Shown here in pieces: positions 7,442-64,000 of a stretch of DNA of 64,000 nucleotides. Within the stretch, counting starts at the first letter, position 1. Every line of letters begins with the position of its first letter. The notes beneath the pieces are model-generated. The model had not been told where the DNA came from, ran no database searches, and saw nothing but the letters and a program-made list of their open reading frames with translations. Location of the stretch: the NCBI RefSeq assembly GCF_056746865.1, contig NZ_CM163382.1; one strand, given 5' to 3'. The position numbers were made by a program, and so were the translations under genes.

Positions 7442-7721
7442 GCGGTTTGCCAGCCTGACTCTTCAACGCAGGGAAGATGCGGCAAACGGCAAACCTGCAT
7501 ACCAGCCAGCCTATATCCGGTATGCACAGGCCAATCATGAAAGAGGAGAGGCTTTATGTTCTGGAACCCTGAAGTAATAACGACGACCGTAAAATCGCTT
7601 CGCATCACTCAAATTCCATTTAACTATTCTGGGTTTGAGGGATATACATAATTGACTTCAGCACCAGAAACAGCATAACAAACTGTTTTAAATGGATATT
7701 AATCAAATGACGATTCAAACT

Positions 7722-23244: not shown

Positions 23245-24837
23245 CTATAACCCAGGCGCTTTCCATAACGACGTCGTCAGTCCATGATCAACCAGCCCCA
23301 GCTGATCCTGATAAACTGCCTGCCACTTATCCCGTGAATCCTGATAAAGTTCATGCTTTTCCGGGTCTGGTGTGTGCGTCCGTTCCCAGCGAACCAGGCG
23401 TTCTCCGGTTTCTGCCATTGATGAAAAAATTCCGGCACCGACGCCAGCTGCAATGGCACATCCTAATGCGGTGGCTTCTTTGACCACCGGAATATTGACG
23501 GGTAATCCCGAGACATCAGCGAGAATTTGACTCCATAATTTCCCTTTTGAACCTCCGCCTGCAAAGACTAACGATGAAGGATGAATATTCGAGAAATCAG
23601 CGATTTGTTGCAAATTACACGCTGATACAATCGCCGCATTTTCTTCCAGCGCACGGAACAACGTCGCTTTGTTACATTTATCCGGATCAATAGACAAATT
23701 AATAAAGGAAGGCGCAGCGTGATACCAGGTTTTAAAGCGCATTCTGTCGGAGAATATCGGCATTACGCCCCACGACCCAGGCGGCACCCGACTTGCCATC
23801 TCTTCCAGCAGCGTATAGGTGTCGATGCCTAAACGTTCGGCAATCAGTTTTTCTTCGGCACAGAAAGCATCGCGGAACCAGCGCATGGTGAGTCCGGTAA
23901 AAAAGCTTATAGATTCAGCTTGTACCATGCCAGGAATAACATGAGGATTAACGCGCACGTTCATTTCTGGGTCTGTCACCGGCGCGGCTAAGTTTACAAC
24001 TTGCTGCCAGAATGTGCCGCCAAGAACAGCGGTTTGTGCCGGACGCACAACGCCTAACCCCAGGCAACCAAGTTGCACGTCGCCTCCTCCAACGACCACC
24101 GGAGTGCCCGCCTTCAGACCGCAGAGTTCCGCCGCTTGTGAACTTACCACGCCCAGCAATGTGCCGGTTTCTTTGACAGGAGAAAGAATATCGGCCCGCA
24201 GTCCGGCCATATCCAGCAATGCAGGTTTCCAGTCACGGGTGGTTAGGTCAAGAAGTCCCGTGGTGCCAGCGTTAGAGGGATCCACCGCCAGTTCGCCGCT
24301 GAGCATATAGGCCAGCCAGTCGCTGATCATGGTGATGGTCGACGCCTGTCGGTAGATATCAGAACGATGGTGCGCCAGCCAAAGTAATCTGGGAATAGCG
24401 CTTAAAGCCAGCGTTTGTCCGGTGGCGCGATAAACTTCGTTTTCAAAGGTATTGTTGTGCAGTTCTTTAAGTTCGCTAACTTCGCGCGCCGCTCTGGCAT
24501 CCACATTGGCGCAGGCCCAGATCGGTGTTCCTTCATTGTTATATAAAACAATGCCTTCGCGCATCGAACATGCCGAAACGGCAGCGATATACTCCGGGGC
24601 TATGCCGGCGTTGTGCAGCGCCTGGCGCATACACTCACACGCCAGTTGCCAGTTTTTGTTGAGATCAAACTCCATAGAACCAGGAACGTCCGGTACTGCC
24701 AGGTGCCGCCACTCCGCCTGTCCCACTGCTATTTGATTGCCTTCCAGGTCGAATATCACAGCCCGAATACTTCCGGTGCCTGCATCCAGCGCCATCAGGT
24801 AGTACTTTGATTCTGAAGGGGTAAAGAGTCGAGCCAT
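23245..24837 (-). CDS. lsrK: autoinducer-2 kinase
   Basis: 530-aa ORF, FGGY-family carbohydrate kinase pattern; downstream of lsrR. Confidence 0.9.
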
Positions 24838-45104: not shown

Positions 45105-45323
45105 ATGAAACCACTTTTATCCGCAATTGCAGCTGCGCTTATTCTCTTTTCCGCGCAGGGCGTTGCGGAACAAACCACGCAGCAGGTTGTTACTTCCTGT
45201 GCCAATGTCGTGGTTGTTCCCCCATCGCATGAACAACCACCGTTTGATTTAAATCACATGGGTACTGGCAGTGATAAGTCGGATGCGCTCGGCGTGCCCT
45301 ATTATAATCAACACGCTATGTAG
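45105..45323 (+). CDS. marB: periplasmic MarB
   Basis: 72-aa ORF with signal peptide. Confidence 0.85.
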   Translation: MKPLLSAIAAALILFSAQGVAEQTTQQVVTSCANVVVVPPSHEQPPFDLNHMGTGSDKSDALGVPYYNQHAM

Positions 45324-53359: not shown

Positions 53360-53495
53360 TTTCTTCTCCTGAACGCGAGGTGTTCCATAGCGTAGGCTTA
53401 CTGATAACGGAGTGCAATCTTGCAAACCAGTATTACCCGCTCTTAAGCATCACGTGCTATGTTATTGACACACAAAAGCGTTGAGGAACAGTGAG

Positions 53496-54242
53496 ATGAT
53501 CGTTTTAGTAACTGGAGCAACGGCAGGTTTTGGTGAATGCATTACTCGTCGTTTTATTCAACAAGGGCATAAAGTTATCGCCACTGGCCGTCGCCAGGAG
53601 CGGTTGCAGGAGTTAAAAGACGAACTGGGAGATAATCTTTATATCGCCCAACTGGACGTTCGCAACCGCGCCGCTATTGAAGAGATGCTGGCATCGCTTC
53701 CTGCCGAGTGGAGCAATATTGATATCCTGGTAAATAATGCCGGCCTGGCGTTGGGCATGGAGCCTGCGCATAAAGCCAGCGTTGAAGACTGGGAAACGAT
53801 GATTGATACCAACAATAAAGGCCTGGTATATATGACGCGCGCCGTCTTACCGGGTATGGTTGAACGTAATCATGGTCATATTATTAACATTGGCTCAACG
53901 GCAGGTAGCTGGCCGTATGCCGGTGGTAACGTTTACGGTGCGACGAAAGCGTTTGTTCGTCAGTTTAGCCTGAATCTGCGTACGGACCTGCATGGTACGG
54001 CGGTGCGCGTCACCGACATCGAACCGGGTCTGGTGGGTGGCACCGAGTTTTCCAATGTCCGCTTTAAAGGCGATGACGGTAAAGCGGAAAAAACCTATCA
54101 AAATACCGTTGCATTGACGCCAGAAGATGTCAGCGAAGCCGTCTGGTGGGTATCAACGCTGCCTGCTCACGTTAATATCAATACCCTGGAAATGATGCCG
54201 GTTACCCAAAGCTATGCCGGACTGAATGTCCACCGTCAGTAA
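53496..54242 (+). CDS. ydfG: NADP-dependent 3-hydroxy acid dehydrogenase (SDR)
   Basis: 248 aa from MIVLVTGATAGFGECITRRF…; Rossmann motif. Confidence 0.9.
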   Translation: MIVLVTGATAGFGECITRRFIQQGHKVIATGRRQERLQELKDELGDNLYIAQLDVRNRAAIEEMLASLPAEWSNIDILVNNAGLALGMEPAHKASVEDWETMIDTNNKGLVYMTRAVLPGMVERNHGHIINIGSTAGSWPYAGGNVYGATKAFVRQFSLNLRTDLHGTAVRVTDIEPGLVGGTEFSNVRFKGDDGKAEKTYQNTVALTPEDVSEAVWWVSTLPAHVNINTLEMMPVTQSYAGLNVHRQ

Positions 54243-54330: not shown

Positions 54331-55017
54331 ATGACCGTCGAAACGCAACTTAATCCCACACAGCCTGTCAATCAGCAGATTTATCGTATTCTTCGTCGCG
54401 ACATTGTCCATTGCCTGATTGCACCAGGCACACCGTTGTCGGAAAAAGAAGTTTCTGTTCGTTTCAATGTGTCACGCCAGCCGGTTCGTGAAGCCTTTAT
54501 TAAACTGGCGGAAAACGGCCTGATTCAAATTCGTCCGCAGCGTGGCAGCTACGTCAACAAAATTTCCATGGCCCAGGTGCGCAACGGCAGTTTTATCCGT
54601 CAGGCCATTGAGTGCGCGGTGGCGCGTCGGGCGGCGAGCATGATTACCGAAAGCCAGTGCTACCAACTGGAACAAAATCTTCACCAGCAACGCATTGCCA
54701 TTGAGCGCAAGCAACTGGATGATTTTTTTGAACTTGATGACAACTTCCATCAACTCCTGACGCAGATTGCCGACTGTCAACTGGCGTGGGATACCATTGA
54801 GAACCTGAAAGCGACCGTTGATCGCGTGCGCTATATGAGTTTCGACCACGTTTCTCCACCAGAAATGCTGTTACGCCAGCATCTTGAGATTTTCTCTGCC
54901 CTGCAAAAACGTGATGGCGATGCGGTAGAACGTGCAATGACGCAACATTTGCAGGAAATCAGCGAATCCGTGCGCCAGATCCGCCAGGAAAACAGCGACT
55001 GGTTTAGCGAAGAGTAA
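54331..55017 (+). CDS. rspR: GntR/FadR-family transcriptional regulator
   Basis: 228-aa ORF with N-terminal winged HTH (…[19 protein letters not shown]…). Confidence 0.85.
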
Positions 55018-55098
55018 TTCATTTCCTCTCATCCCATTCGGGGTGAGAGTCTCTCCCCCCGCCTTATGGCTCATGCATGCATCAAAAAAGATGTGAGC

Positions 55099-55112
55099 TT
55101 GATCAAAAACAA
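55099..55112. promoter_or_regulatory. FNR-like site TTGAT-caaa-AACAA upstream of ydfZ
   Basis: Read from sequence; 9 of 10 match to TTGAT-N4-ATCAA; -10-like TATTTA about 22 bp downstream. Confidence 0.35.
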
Positions 55113-55193
55113 AAAATATTTCACTCGACAGGAGTATTTATATTGCGCCCGTTACGTGGGCTTCGACTGTAAATCAGAAAGGAGAAAACACCT

Positions 55194-55397
55194 ATGACGA
55201 CCTACGATCGTAACCGTAACGCAATCACCACTGGCAGCCGTGTTATGGTTAGCGGCACCGGTCACACTGGCAAGATCCTGTCGATTGATACTGAAGGTCT
55301 GACCGCTGAGCAAATCCGCCGCGGAAAAACCGTAGTTGTTGAAGGTTGTGAAGAGAAACTGGCACCTCTGGACCTGATTCGTCTCGGCATGAACTAA
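55194..55397 (+). CDS. ydfZ: small conserved protein YdfZ
   Basis: 67-aa [38 protein letters not shown]… with AGGAG RBS. Confidence 0.85.
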
Positions 55398-55405
55398 GCG
55401 TGTGA

Positions 55406-55436
55406 ATGCCGCCGATGGCGGCATTGCTTTTTTTAC
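55406..55436. terminator. bidirectional Rho-independent terminator between ydfZ and ydfI
   Basis: ATGCCGCC-gat-GGCGGCAT stem followed by TGCTTTTTTT. Confidence 0.75.
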
Positions 55437-56893
55437 TTCACGGAATATTTCGCAACGGTCGCTTTCGCACCATGCGCTAATAAAGACAAGTACGCTTCCG
55501 TCACTTTTGCAGTAAACAAGCTATTGTCTGGCAAATCATCACCAAAGATCGCCTTAATCGCCAGCAATGACTGGACGCGCGCTTTCCCTTCGGCACTACT
55601 TTGTACAGCCTTCTGAATAACAGGTAACAGTGGGTCACTGATTTCTATCGGATTTCCCTGTTCATCAACACCACCGACATAACGCATCCAACCTGCGACG
55701 CCCAGCGCCAGCAGATCGAACTTGCTGTCATGCGCCAGATGCCAGCGAACAGAATCCAACATCCGCTGTGGCAATTTCTGGCTGCCATCCATCGCAATCT
55801 GCCAGGTTCGATGACGTAGCGCCGGGTTGCTATAGCGTTCAATTAATCGGTTAGCGTAATCTTGCAAATCAACGCCCTGCACTTTCAACGTCGGCGCTTG
55901 TTCCTGCAACATCAAGGCATACGCTGCATGACGATAATGTTCATCTTCCATGCAGTCATTAATGTGCTGATATCCGGCAAGATACCCCAGATACGCCAGG
56001 AATGAATGACTGCCGTTGAGCATGCGCAACTTCATCTCTTCATAAGGCAGCACATCACTAACCAGTTCGGCTCCCGCTTTTTCCCATTCCGGACGTCCGG
56101 CAACAAAGTTATCTTCTATTACCCACTGGCGGAAAGGTTCACAGGCAACGCCAGCAGGATCGCGCACACCGGTAAGTTGTTCGATTTTCGCCAGCGTATC
56201 CTCTGTCACTGCGGGCACAATACGGTCCACCATTGTTGATGGGAAAGTCACGTTTACTTCGATCCATTGTGCCAGTTTTACATCAACAGCTTGCGCGTAG
56301 GAAGTGACAACGTCACGCATAACATGACCGTTTTCTGGCATGTTGTCACATGACATGACGGTAAATGCGGGAAGTCCTGCCGCTTTACGGCGAGCCAGCG
56401 CCTCAACAATCACCCCTGTTGCAGTTTTCGGCTGGTGGGGATTTTGCACGTCGGCAGCGACCATCGGGTGATCGAGCATTAACTGTCCGGTCGCCGGAGA
56501 GTGGAAATACCCTTTTTCGGTGATTGTCAGAGAGACAATCGCGATTTGCGGTTCACACATCGCAGCCAACACGGTTTCTAAGCCATCTATCTGTACGTGC
56601 AAGGCTTTTTTAACGACGCCAACGACGCGAGCCGTCCACGCATCGGCCGACATTTCCGCAACGGTATAAAGATTATCTTGCTGTTGTAAATCGGCAATTT
56701 GCTGTTCGCCGCCGATTAAATTGACCTCATAATATCCCCAATCACTGAAATGTTTTGTAGCAAGAATATCGGCATACACGCCCTGATGCGCACGGTGAAA
56801 TGCGCCAAAGCCTAAATGAACAATTCTTGGGGCCAAGTTATTACGATCATAAACAGGGAGCGTCGCTTTTGCTGATAACAAATTATTTCCCAT
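55433..56893 (-). CDS. ydfI: mannitol-dehydrogenase-family oxidoreductase
   Basis: 486-aa ORF with long-chain mannitol/mannonate dehydrogenase pattern. Confidence 0.85.
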
Positions 56894-56982: not shown

Positions 56983-58350
56983 TTACAGACTTCTTGAAGG
57001 TTGCGCAGCTGTTACAACACGCGGTTGATCTTCCGCGGCATCTTCCAGTGCACTTAAATCACGGTCTCTCACTTCTGGCATTTTCAGCGCAGAGATTAAA
57101 CCAATCACTGAATATGCCATGATCATAATGGCGATCGGATACCAGGATTCCGTCATGGTGCAGAAAATACCCGCCAGGATAGGACCAAAACCGGAAGCGA
57201 TAAGACCACCAATTTCTTTAGAAATCGCCATCCGGGTAAAGCGGTTTTTACAGCCGAACATTTCTGCCATGGTAATGTTTTCCAGAGCAAATAATCCCAG
57301 CACCGCACAGTTATGAATCACAATCAGTGCAACCATAATGGTGCTCGGGGCATAGCTTTTATCTACGATGATAGAAAGCATTGGCCACGCCAGCACAATC
57401 GCAGAGGTATTCATAATAATATACGGGATCCGGCGACCTATTTTATCGGATAACCAACCAAGGAACGGAATGGTCATAAAGCCGAGAATCGAACTGATCA
57501 TCAATGCATCTGTTGGAATTGCTTTGTTAAACAATAACGTCTGCACTAAATAGCCTGCAAGGAAAGTCTGAATTAAACCGGAGTTACCAGCCTGACCAAA
57601 ACGCAGCCCTGTTGCCAGCCAGAAGGATTTGCTCTGGAACATGCTACCAGCAGGTGCAGGTTTTGCTGTCGGTTGGTTGCTGTCGTTAACCTTCTCAAAG
57701 ACCGGGCTTTCTTTCAGATTCATACGCAACCAGATAGCAAAGACCATCACGACAACGCTCGCCAGGAACGGTATACGCCATCCCCACGCAAGCAGTTCCT
57801 CTTTACTGAGAATGAAGAACATAAAGGCCCAGATTGCCGTTGCGCTCAAGGTTCCGCAGTTAGTCCCCATAGCAACAAATGAGGAGATAATTCCGCGCTT
57901 ACCTTTTGGTGCATATTCCGCCAGCATCGTGCCGGCACCGGAAATTTCCGCGCCTGCCCCCAGCCCCTGAATAATACGCAGCGTCACCAGCAAAATTGGC
58001 GCAAACACACCAATTTGTGCATAGGTCGGCAGCACACCAATTAAGGTAGTACAGATCCCCATCATAGTGATGGTAATAAAGAGCACTTTTTTACGCCCGA
58101 TTCTGTCGCCCATTTTGCCGAAAATAAATGCTCCGACAATACGCGCCACATAACCTGCACCGTAGGTTCCCATTGCCAGAATTAACGCCATTGCCGTTGA
58201 TGATTCAGGAAAAAATATTTCATGAAACACTAACGCTGCGCCGAGCGAATATAACTGGAAATCCATAAATTCAAGCGCAGTGCCCAGCCATCCCGATACT
58301 GCTGCTTTCACCAAATCCTTAGTGCTTCTTTCGTGTTTTTCTATTGTCAT
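56983..58350 (-). CDS. ydfJ: MFS metabolite:H+ symporter, apparently intact
   Basis: 455-aa uninterrupted 12-TM-like ORF. Confidence 0.85.
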   Translation of the reverse strand: MTIEKHERSTKDLVKAAVSGWLGTALEFMDFQLYSLGAALVFHEIFFPESSTAMALILAMGTYGAGYVARIVGAFIFGKMGDRIGRKKVLFITITMMGICTTLIGVLPTYAQIGVFAPILLVTLRIIQGLGAGAEISGAGTMLAEYAPKGKRGIISSFVAMGTNCGTLSATAIWAFMFFILSKEELLAWGWRIPFLASVVVMVFAIWLRMNLKESPVFEKVNDSNQPTAKPAPAGSMFQSKSFWLATGLRFGQAGNSGLIQTFLAGYLVQTLLFNKAIPTDALMISSILGFMTIPFLGWLSDKIGRRIPYIIMNTSAIVLAWPMLSIIVDKSYAPSTIMVALIVIHNCAVLGLFALENITMAEMFGCKNRFTRMAISKEIGGLIASGFGPILAGIFCTMTESWYPIAIMIMAYSVIGLISALKMPEVRDRDLSALEDAAEDQPRVVTAAQPSRSL

Positions 58351-58407
58351 AATGGTTATCTCTAAAAAAGAGGTAAGATGCGTACTACTTACTCGCCGTT
58401 ATTGGTA

Positions 58408-59427
58408 TTATTCAGAAAAAGTGAGTAAGACTTTGCAGCAATGCTTTTGATCCTGTTCAAATAAACTAATGGCATCAGCAACATGCTGGAAATCAAACGT
58501 ATGGGTAATTAGTTTTTCTGGTTTAATTAACCCTTTACTTAACCAGTCGATAACGACCGGGAATTTATTTGCATTTAAGCGTGAAGAGAAAATAGAGAGT
58601 TCTTTTCCGGTAATTCCTTGCTGAATCACTTCAGACGGTTCACTGGAGAAGCCCATCAATACAATACGTGCCGCTGGAGAAGCCAGCGTTACGGCTTCTT
58701 TCAGGATTGAAGGATGACAAGCCGCATCGATAATTAATGTCGGCTTTATGCCTTTTTCAGCGAAAATCTCGCCAAGCGGTGTCTGGCTGTTATTAATCGC
58801 CCAGTCTGCCCCGCTCTCTTTCGCTTTTTCCAGTCGTTCATCAATGCGATCGGCAACAATCACATTCTTAACGTTATAGACGCCTTTTAATACCTGAACG
58901 ATCGTCAGGCCGATTGGACCGGCACCGTAAACCAGAACGGTATCATTTTCAGTCGGTTGACCATGACCGGTAACGTTAGCCGCAATGGTAAAAGGTTCGA
59001 TCATCACCGCATATTGATCGGCCACTGCTTCAGGAATTTTCCACGCATTTTTTGCCGGCACCACGGCATATTCACTGAAACCACCGTCAGCGTGCACACC
59101 TAATACAGCCAGTGTCGTACAAACGTTCGGCTTACCTATAGAGCACGGATAGCAATGCCCACAGCTGACCACCGGATCGACAGCAACGCGTTCACCGACT
59201 CTGGCGCTTTCCACGCCTTCACCCACTGCATCAATGACGCCAAAGAATTCATGACCAATGACGCGCGGATATTTCGCAAAAGGATTATGCCCACGATAAA
59301 TATGGCTATCTGAACCACAAATTCCGGCAAGTTTCACTTTTACTCGTACTTCACCCGCTGACGGGGTGGGTATTTCGCGTTCGATAATTGCCAGTTGATT
59401 CGGTTTTTCAATTAAAATGCTTTTCAT
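58408..59427 (-). CDS. rspB: zinc-dependent alcohol-dehydrogenase-family oxidoreductase
   Basis: 339 aa from MKSILIEKPNQLAIIEREIP…; GHE zinc motif. Confidence 0.85.
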   Translation of the reverse strand: MKSILIEKPNQLAIIEREIPTPSAGEVRVKVKLAGICGSDSHIYRGHNPFAKYPRVIGHEFFGVIDAVGEGVESARVGERVAVDPVVSCGHCYPCSIGKPNVCTTLAVLGVHADGGFSEYAVVPAKNAWKIPEAVADQYAVMIEPFTIAANVTGHGQPTENDTVLVYGAGPIGLTIVQVLKGVYNVKNVIVADRIDERLEKAKESGADWAINNSQTPLGEIFAEKGIKPTLIIDAACHPSILKEAVTLASPAARIVLMGFSSEPSEVIQQGITGKELSIFSSRLNANKFPVVIDWLSKGLIKPEKLITHTFDFQHVADAISLFEQDQKHCCKVLLTFSE

Positions 59428-63467: not shown

Positions 63468-63481
63468 TTGATATGGATTAA
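63468..63481. promoter_or_regulatory. FNR-like site TTGAT-atgg-ATTAA upstream of ynfE
   Basis: Read from sequence; 9 of 10 match to FNR consensus, about 100 bp upstream of ynfE ATG. Confidence 0.3.
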
Positions 63482-63580: not shown

Positions 63581-64000
63581 ATGTCCAAAAATGAACAAAT
63601 GGTGGGCATCAGCCGCAGAACACTCGTTAAATCTACCGCGATAGGTTCTCTGGCGCTGGCTGCAGGCGGTTTTTCTTTACCGTTCACCCTGCGCAGTGCA
63701 GCGGCAGCGGTACAGCAGGCCAGCGAGAAAGTGGTCTGGGGTGCCTGTTCCGTCAACTGTGGTAGCCGCTGTGCACTTCGTCTGCATGTTAAAGATAATG
63801 AAGTGACCTGGGTGGAAACTGACAACACCGGCAACGACGAGTATGGCAATCATCAAGTACGTGCCTGTTTGCGCGGTCGCTCCATCCGTCGGCGTATTAA
63901 TCATCCCGATCGCTTGAATTACCCAATGAAACGCGTGGGCAAACGCGGCGAAGGCAAATTCGAACGGATTAGCTGGGATGAAGCCCTGGATACTATCGCC
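63581..64000 (+). CDS. ynfE: 5' part of Tat-exported molybdopterin oxidoreductase (DMSO/selenate reductase family catalytic subunit); runs off window end
   Basis: ATG at 63581 with GGAG RBS; twin-arginine signal (…ISRRTLVKSTAIGSLALAAGG…) then Cys cluster CSVNCGSRCALR; no stop before window end. Confidence 0.85.
   Translation, partial: MSKNEQMVGISRRTLVKSTAIGSLALAAGGFSLPFTLRSAAAAVQQASEKVVWGACSVNCGSRCALRLHVKDNEVTWVETDNTGNDEYGNHQVRACLRGRSIRRRINHPDRLNYPMKRVGKRGEGKFERISWDEALDTIA

Follow-up and report, generated by a model that had tools for sequence, protein, structure and literature searches.

At class II FNR promoters, activating region 1 of FNR contacts alpha-CTD and activating region 3 contacts region 4 of sigma-70. 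Apart from the ydfZ promoter of K-12, the closest described relatives of the promoter considered here, those of dmsA, narG, nirB, nrfA and ynfE, belong to this class, with the FNR box at −40.5 or −41.5. The ydfZ promoter resembles them in carrying one FNR box over the −35 region, in having no usable −35 hexamer and in being strongly induced under anaerobic conditions. It differs from them in two respects: no co-regulator (NarL, NarP or IHF) is annotated for it in the literature examined, and a second, overlapping CRP/FNR-like box lies 6 bp upstream of the first.

The FNR-activated ydfZ promoter is itself already known in detail. As cited by others, Kang 2005 and Mettert 2008 present K-12 PydfZ as a class II FNR-dependent promoter, and a published table gives it the entry 'Activated; Class II promoter' (PMC6343905). 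Using ChIP-chip, Grainger et al. (2006) detected an FNR peak at ydfZ. Myers et al. (2013) observed FNR ChIP-seq peaks at ydfZ in all data sets and placed the gene in their Category 1, direct FNR activation, with two predicted motifs, the top-scoring of which lies at −41.5 (PMC3688515). In the same study, sigma-70 occupancy at ydfZ was 63 aerobically versus 3597 anaerobically, and the fnr−/WT expression ratio was 0.0112, corresponding to an approximately 90-fold fall in the fnr mutant (PMC3688515). The ydfZ promoter has also served as a positive control in FNR EMSAs (PMC5481319), and PydfZ-lacZ is in standard use to gauge FNR activity (PMC13343975; PMC3688515). For a sequence identical to the one examined here, the literature thus documents both FNR occupancy in vivo and FNR binding in vitro; it also documents that ydfZ transcription is FNR-dependent and higher anaerobically.

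Genomic context of ydfZ

The window, by which we mean the whole stretch of 64,000 nucleotides that was analysed, comes from E. coli and has the gene order ydfG-rspR-ydfZ-ydfI-ydfJ. According to the list of open reading frames, ydfG occupies 53481–54242 and rspR (ydfH) 54331–55017; ydfI (55433–56893) and ydfJ (56983–58350) are encoded on the strand opposite to ydfZ. A 501-nt query covering the locus is matched by 5416 of 5426 complete E. coli genomes, and the annotations there read rspR, ydfZ and ydfI. In the alignment with K-12 MG1655, identity is 100% from 55063 to the ydfZ ATG, and the three substitutions relative to MG1655 all fall further upstream, in the region of the rspR terminator and the spacer. 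Since the promoter is identical to that of MG1655, the K-12 data transfer directly. K-12 PydfZ and the promoter in the window have the same FNR box, the same transcription start site (TSS) and the same −41.5 geometry, with no differences between them. Adding 1,572,045 to a window position gives its coordinate in U00096.2, and adding 1,574,021 gives that in NC_000913.3.

The surroundings of the promoter are less uniform. In K-12, the Qin prophage lies downstream of ydfI-ydfJ, whereas the window strain has no Qin prophage. A Qin-type prophage truncates ydfJ in K-12 and in strain 042; in the window, where such a prophage is absent, ydfJ is intact (455 aa; 56983–58620 region) and lies right next to the 3′ end of rspB. 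Because the window strain is free of a Qin-type prophage, the distance between ydfZ and ynfE is only 8.4 kb. On the other side of ydfZ, the rspR terminator hairpin spans 55027–55060 (CTCTCATCCC-attc-GGGGTGAGAG), and the T-tract that follows it reads TCTTTTCC in K-12 versus TCTCTCCC in the window. The altered T-tract may make termination weaker and allow read-through towards ydfZ.

Architecture of the ydfZ promoter

A sequence-only reading of the window had proposed an FNR-type class II promoter upstream of ydfZ, composed of TTGAT-caaa-AACAA, a gap of about 22 bp and a −10-like TATTTA. All of these elements are indeed present. The FNR box (site A, TTGATcaaaAACAA) occupies 55099–55112 on the plus strand and matches TTGAT-N4-ATCAA at 9 of 10 positions. 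Its single mismatch is a T-to-A change at the second position of the right half-site, and the TTG and CAA bases are kept in the two half-sites. Exactly 22 nt (55113–55134) separate site A from the −10 hexamer TATTTA at 55135–55140 on the same strand. Site A coincides in sequence with the ydfZ motif that scores highest in Myers et al. (2013); their supplement gives it as TTGATCAAAAACAA, starting at position 1627144 of U00096.2 (window position 55099), with a PatSer score of 13.58 (PMC3688515). In the main text of the paper, the site appears as TTGATaaaaAACAA (PMC3688515); the genome and the supplement both read TTGATCAAAAACAA, not the main-text version.

The same reading called for a TSS compatible with a site centred near 55105, and published mapping supplies one. 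The supplement of Kim et al. (2012) contains one ydfZ TSS, at position 1627192 of U00096.2, supported by 41 reads and followed by a leader of 47 nt; the 51-mer given upstream of it is GCTTGATCAAAAACAAAAAATATTTCACTCGACAGGAGTATTTATATTGCG, i.e. GCTTGATC...ATTGCG (PMC3415461). Mapped through the MG1655 identity, this start is G55147 on the plus strand, a position based on one high-throughput data set that is not specifically anaerobic, together with the EcoCyc-based value in Myers et al. (2013). Relative to this start, TATTTA extends from −12 to −7 and the centre of site A (55105.5) is at −41.5, in agreement with Table 1 of Myers et al. (2013). The geometry of the ydfZ promoter is canonical for an activator-dependent class II promoter.

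The remaining core elements are far from consensus. In the −35 region, AAAAAT (55112–55117, plus strand; positions −35 to −30) agrees with TTGACA at 1 of 6 positions, and there is no −35 element. The −10 hexamer matches TATAAT at 3 of 6 positions and is without the usual T at −7. A sigma-70 consensus scan of 54900–55500 detected no promoter at ydfZ, which is to be expected for an activator-dependent promoter without a −35 element. We also considered TATATT (55139–55144), located 4 nt downstream of TATTTA, as the −10 hexamer. It matches the consensus at 5 of 6 positions, but we rejected it because its position relative to the TSS, −8 to −3, would leave too short a distance.

The pentamer AGGAG occurs twice upstream of ydfZ, at 55130–55134 and at 55180–55184. 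The sequence-only reading had included a strong AGGAG ribosome-binding site among the elements of the promoter region, and this holds for the second copy. The latter, on the plus strand, is a Shine-Dalgarno sequence that precedes the ATG (55194) by 9 nt and does not vary among the aligned Escherichia and Citrobacter sequences. The first copy, the one within the stretch originally singled out (55099–55143), is not a ribosome-binding site. It lies at −17 to −13, abutting the −10 hexamer, and being upstream of the TSS it is not transcribed from this promoter.

From the mapped TSS, the 5′ leader extends over 47 nt (55147–55193, plus strand) to the ydfZ coding sequence (55194–55397, plus strand; 67 aa), an open reading frame that is also annotated in RefSeq and matches the Pfam family PF14001 (YdfZ) with E = 7e-34. 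A terminator scan identified an intrinsic terminator at 55405–55435 on the plus strand, which has a stem of 9 bp and, after 55405–55425, a run of seven Ts (T7), and this clear termination signal indicates that ydfZ is monocistronic. An RNA element in the spacer or leader was considered and rejected: an Rfam search of 54900–55500 returned no family match, and the fold of the 47-nt ydfZ leader could not be distinguished from those of shuffled sequences (z = −1.1).

Frequency of FNR-like motifs in the window

Might the FNR-like 14-mer upstream of ydfZ be simply a chance match in A/T-rich intergenic DNA, with no regulatory role? The counts in the window are in line with such a view. FNR motifs with at most one mismatch occur 6 times in the 64-kb window against 3.26 expected, a number reached in 6 of 100 shuffles, and other matches are found inside coding sequences (marB, rspB). 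The motif is thus not enriched above chance in the window, and we set its count aside as evidence. What raises site A above chance is its context: the mapped TSS, the conservation across genera and within E. coli, and the published binding and expression data. A chance match is contradicted by the ChIP, EMSA, reporter and expression data as well as by the exact −41.5 geometry and the conservation, and we regard this explanation as vanishingly improbable.

Other matches to the FNR consensus with one mismatch lie at 45244–45257, 7693–7706 and 23677–23690. The first of them (TTGATTTAAATCAC) is located inside the marB coding sequence and is the same 14-mer as the ompW site. A further FNR-like match at 9 of 10 positions, TTGATCCTGTTCAA (58447–58460), lies within the final codons of rspB and precedes the start of the intact ydfJ by about 100 nt. 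It could be a chance occurrence, or it could belong to a ydfJ-ydfI promoter that the prophage conceals in K-12. In Myers et al. (2013), ydfI is 'activated' in one data set (PMC3688515). The window also includes a second known class II FNR box, TTGATATGGATTAA (63468–63481), positioned 21 nt before TAGACT and upstream of ynfE, which has its ATG at 63582 and encodes a Tat signal, MSKNEQMVGISRRTLVKS. This box is identical to the ynfE motif of Myers et al. (2013), located at −40.5 (PMC3688515).

Conservation across genera and within E. coli

Scanning one genome per species, we found 17 loci encoding YdfZ relatives, the upstream regions of which form six mutually unalignable lineages. In five of the six, an FNR-like box matching at least 8 of 10 positions is present 77–102 nt before the ATG, and it precedes a −10-like hexamer by 21–22 nt, likewise in five of the six. 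In Escherichia and Citrobacter, the box is TTGATCA[A/T]AAACAA, with 22 nt to TATTTA; in Franconibacter and Enterobacter pulveris, it is TTGATCGAGATTAA, with 21 nt to TAAAAT. Enterobacteriaceae bacterium LSJC7 has GTGATCGCGATCAA and 21 nt to CACAAT, Buttiauxella has TTGA[C/T]TTNGCTCAA and 22 nt to TATTTA, and Shimwellia has TTGATCTGGGTTAA and 21 nt to TAGAAT. According to dinucleotide-preserving shuffles, at least five of six lineages would have such a box at some position within 200 nt with a probability of 6e-4. If the box is restricted to the positions from −110 to −70, this probability becomes 4e-7, but the interval was chosen after seeing the data, and therefore 6e-4 is the fair figure.

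At closer range, both half-sites of site A and the −10 region are invariant in Escherichia and Citrobacter, the substitutions being confined to the N4 spacer, the left half of the overlapping site B (described below) and the stretch from −31 to −28. Within E. coli, 5296 of 5322 matching records share exactly the same 58-nt promoter core (55093–55150). The adjacent intergenic 58 nt (55019–55076), by comparison, are identical in only 189 records and are detected by megablast in 476. Among the 26 records that differ in the core is E. coli MS 198-1, in which a 1-nt deletion in the A-run (aligned 55111–55116) leaves a spacer of 21 nt to the −10 hexamer. Judging from the alignment, this deletion would place the FNR box at −40.5, a position known from other FNR promoters.

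Two of the ydfZ-like genes, that of Kluyvera sichuanensis and the second copy in Buttiauxella gaviniae, have no FNR box upstream. About 150 nt upstream of the starts of these two genes, there is a LexA-box-like element, CTGTATA[A/T]ATAA[A/G]CAG, which may belong to the neighbouring gene.

Two overlapping boxes upstream of ydfZ

The box that overlaps site A (site B, TGTGAgcttgaTCAAA; no strand assigned) spans 55092–55107 and is centred at 55099.5, that is, at −47.5. It can be read as a CRP box, TGTGAgcttgaTCAAA, with 9 of 10 matches to TGTGA-N6-TCACA, or as an FNR box, GTGAGcttgATCAA (55093–55106), with 8 of 10 matches. Site B arises in part because TTGATCAA is self-complementary.

The presence of two FNR-like boxes raises the question of whether FNR acts via GTGAGcttgATCAA, at −47.5, and not via site A. 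The FNR site predicted by Grainger et al. (2006) is in fact centred on site B, and the TGA-N6-TCA core of the latter is intact. In the supplement of Myers et al. (2013), site B corresponds to the second, overlapping motif, GTGAGCTTGATCAA, which starts at 1627138 (window position 55093) and has a score near that of site A (13.18 versus 13.58; PMC3688515). However, site B, centred at −47.5, is displaced from the class II position by half a helical turn, and 19 of the 23 FNR-activated promoters with known TSS have the site at −41.5 ± 4. Of the two boxes, only site A lies at the class II distance from the mapped TSS. Site A is also favoured because, as an FNR box, it is maintained throughout the Escherichia clades, its half-sites being invariant, whereas site B as an FNR box falls to 7 of 10 matches in the clades of E. 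albertii and E. whittamii. Finally, the lone FNR box in other genera has the spacing of site A, 21–22 nt before the −10 hexamer, and this too argues for site A. From the TSS distance and the conservation we infer that FNR contacts site A rather than site B, and we consider it very unlikely that FNR acts through site B.

A possible role of CRP at site B

A Footprint-seq preprint (2026) includes TGTGAgcttgaTCAAA among 'novel CRP sites' and assigns it to ydfZ (PMC12871828). The centre of this site is at position 1629120 of NC_000913.3, i.e. window position 55099, and the inferred Kd, obtained in vitro, is about 5.2 nM (PMC12871828). CRP genomic SELEX lists ydfZ as well (PMC3105977). Site B thus combines a match to TGTGA-N6-TCACA with CRP binding in vitro. 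On the other hand, −47.5 is not among the positions from which CRP activates (−41.5, −61.5, −71.5 etc.), and CRP bound at site B could not activate transcription from G55147. A comparison with CRP/FNR hybrid sites (TGTGA-N6-TCACA versus TTGA-N6-TCAA) leads to a similar picture: like them, site B joins a TGTGA half to a TCAA half and binds CRP in vitro, but it differs from them in that −47.5 is no known activating position for either protein.

The CRP box of site B overlaps the FNR box by 8 bp. One may therefore envisage a composite promoter, in which FNR activates at −41.5 and cAMP-CRP bound at −47.5 excludes FNR, with carbon status modulating anaerobic induction. Such an arrangement would supplement the FNR explanation, not replace it. 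In addition to the 9 of 10 matches of TGTGAgcttgaTCAAA to the CRP core, the Footprint-seq binding at this very centre and the SELEX entry, two evolutionary observations speak for it. First, despite substitutions, the CRP-like match of site B stays at 9 of 10 positions across Escherichia and Citrobacter. Second, CRP boxes are found upstream of the FNR box in orthologues from other genera. In Franconibacter, E. pulveris and Shimwellia, a consensus or near-consensus CRP box (TGTGATATTCATCACA, GGTGATATATGTCACA) is located 29 bp upstream of the FNR box and about 100–115 nt upstream of the start of the ydfZ orthologue, at about −70.5. This layout suggests tandem CRP (−70.5) and FNR (−41.5) promoters in these organisms, and CRP input to ydfZ may be recurrent among genera.

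At the same time, the evidence for CRP at ydfZ comes entirely from in vitro experiments, and we found no report of CRP-dependent ydfZ expression in vivo in the literature. Moreover, site B is partly an automatic consequence of the self-complementary TTGATCAA, and the FNR ChIP and expression data, obtained in glucose medium, need no CRP. Weighing both sides, we regard a composite promoter as unlikely. Taken as a two-input switch, with cAMP-CRP (−47.5) competing with FNR (−41.5) and poor carbon damping anaerobic induction, PydfZ is a doubtful proposition. A further part of this two-input reading concerns other enterobacterial genera, where carbon and oxygen signals would be integrated through CRP at about −70.5 together with FNR, in a synergistic class III layout; we offer this part, too, with little confidence.

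Other candidate inputs upstream of ydfZ

Upstream of site A lies an inverted repeat, CATCaaaaaaGATG (55080–55093), of the form CATC-aaaaaa-GATG and centred near −60.5. Its counterpart in Citrobacter amalonaticus, CAGCcaaaaaGCTG, has the form CAGC-caaaaa-GCTG and is found about 120 nt upstream of the ydfZ start, with both arms changed and the symmetry kept. The repeat may be recognised by another factor. In a genomic-SELEX study with the RpoS holoenzyme (Shimada 2017), a weak peak of intensity 5.5 was assigned to the ydfH>ydfZ spacer at position 1627238 of U00096.2, corresponding to window position ~55193. In addition, an iModulon paper (2026) places ydfZ in both ArcA iModulons. A report of FabR binding at 'ddg/ydfZ' in Salmonella was considered as well and dismissed as irrelevant, since it concerns the convergent ddg/yfdZ pair and apparently reflects a confusion of gene names.

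Discussion

Our analysis leaves little doubt about the nature of the native E. coli ydfZ promoter: it is very probably a simple class II FNR-activated sigma-70 promoter. In the sequence, this is reflected by an inverted repeat with 9 of 10 matches to TTGAT-N4-ATCAA and by the absence of a −35 hexamer. Anaerobic activation of ydfZ by FNR had been proposed in the sequence-only reading, and the published ChIP, EMSA, reporter and expression data agree with it, as does the TSS geometry.

Under anaerobiosis, a [4Fe-4S] FNR dimer very probably binds TTGATcaaaAACAA (55099–55112) at −41.5, in place of a −35 hexamer, and recruits sigma-70 RNA polymerase to the ydfZ promoter. Given the missing −35 element and the weak −10 hexamer TATTTA, RNA polymerase depends on contacts with FNR. 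By analogy with class II promoters, these would probably be the contacts between activating region 1 and alpha-CTD and between activating region 3 and region 4 of sigma-70. Transcription initiated at G55147 then produces the 47-nt leader with its AGGAG Shine-Dalgarno sequence, followed by the message for the 67-aa YdfZ, and ends at the terminator at 55405–55435.

If site B does act in vivo as a CRP site, results from PydfZ-lacZ as a 'pure' FNR reporter across carbon sources would need a caveat. As for the recognition of such promoters, the ydfZ case illustrates that a real class II promoter can be recognised from sequence alone, although the motif occurs at chance frequency; the call was right because of the context of the motif. 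PydfZ is among the best-documented simple FNR-activated promoters and is a routine reporter of the [4Fe-4S] status of FNR.
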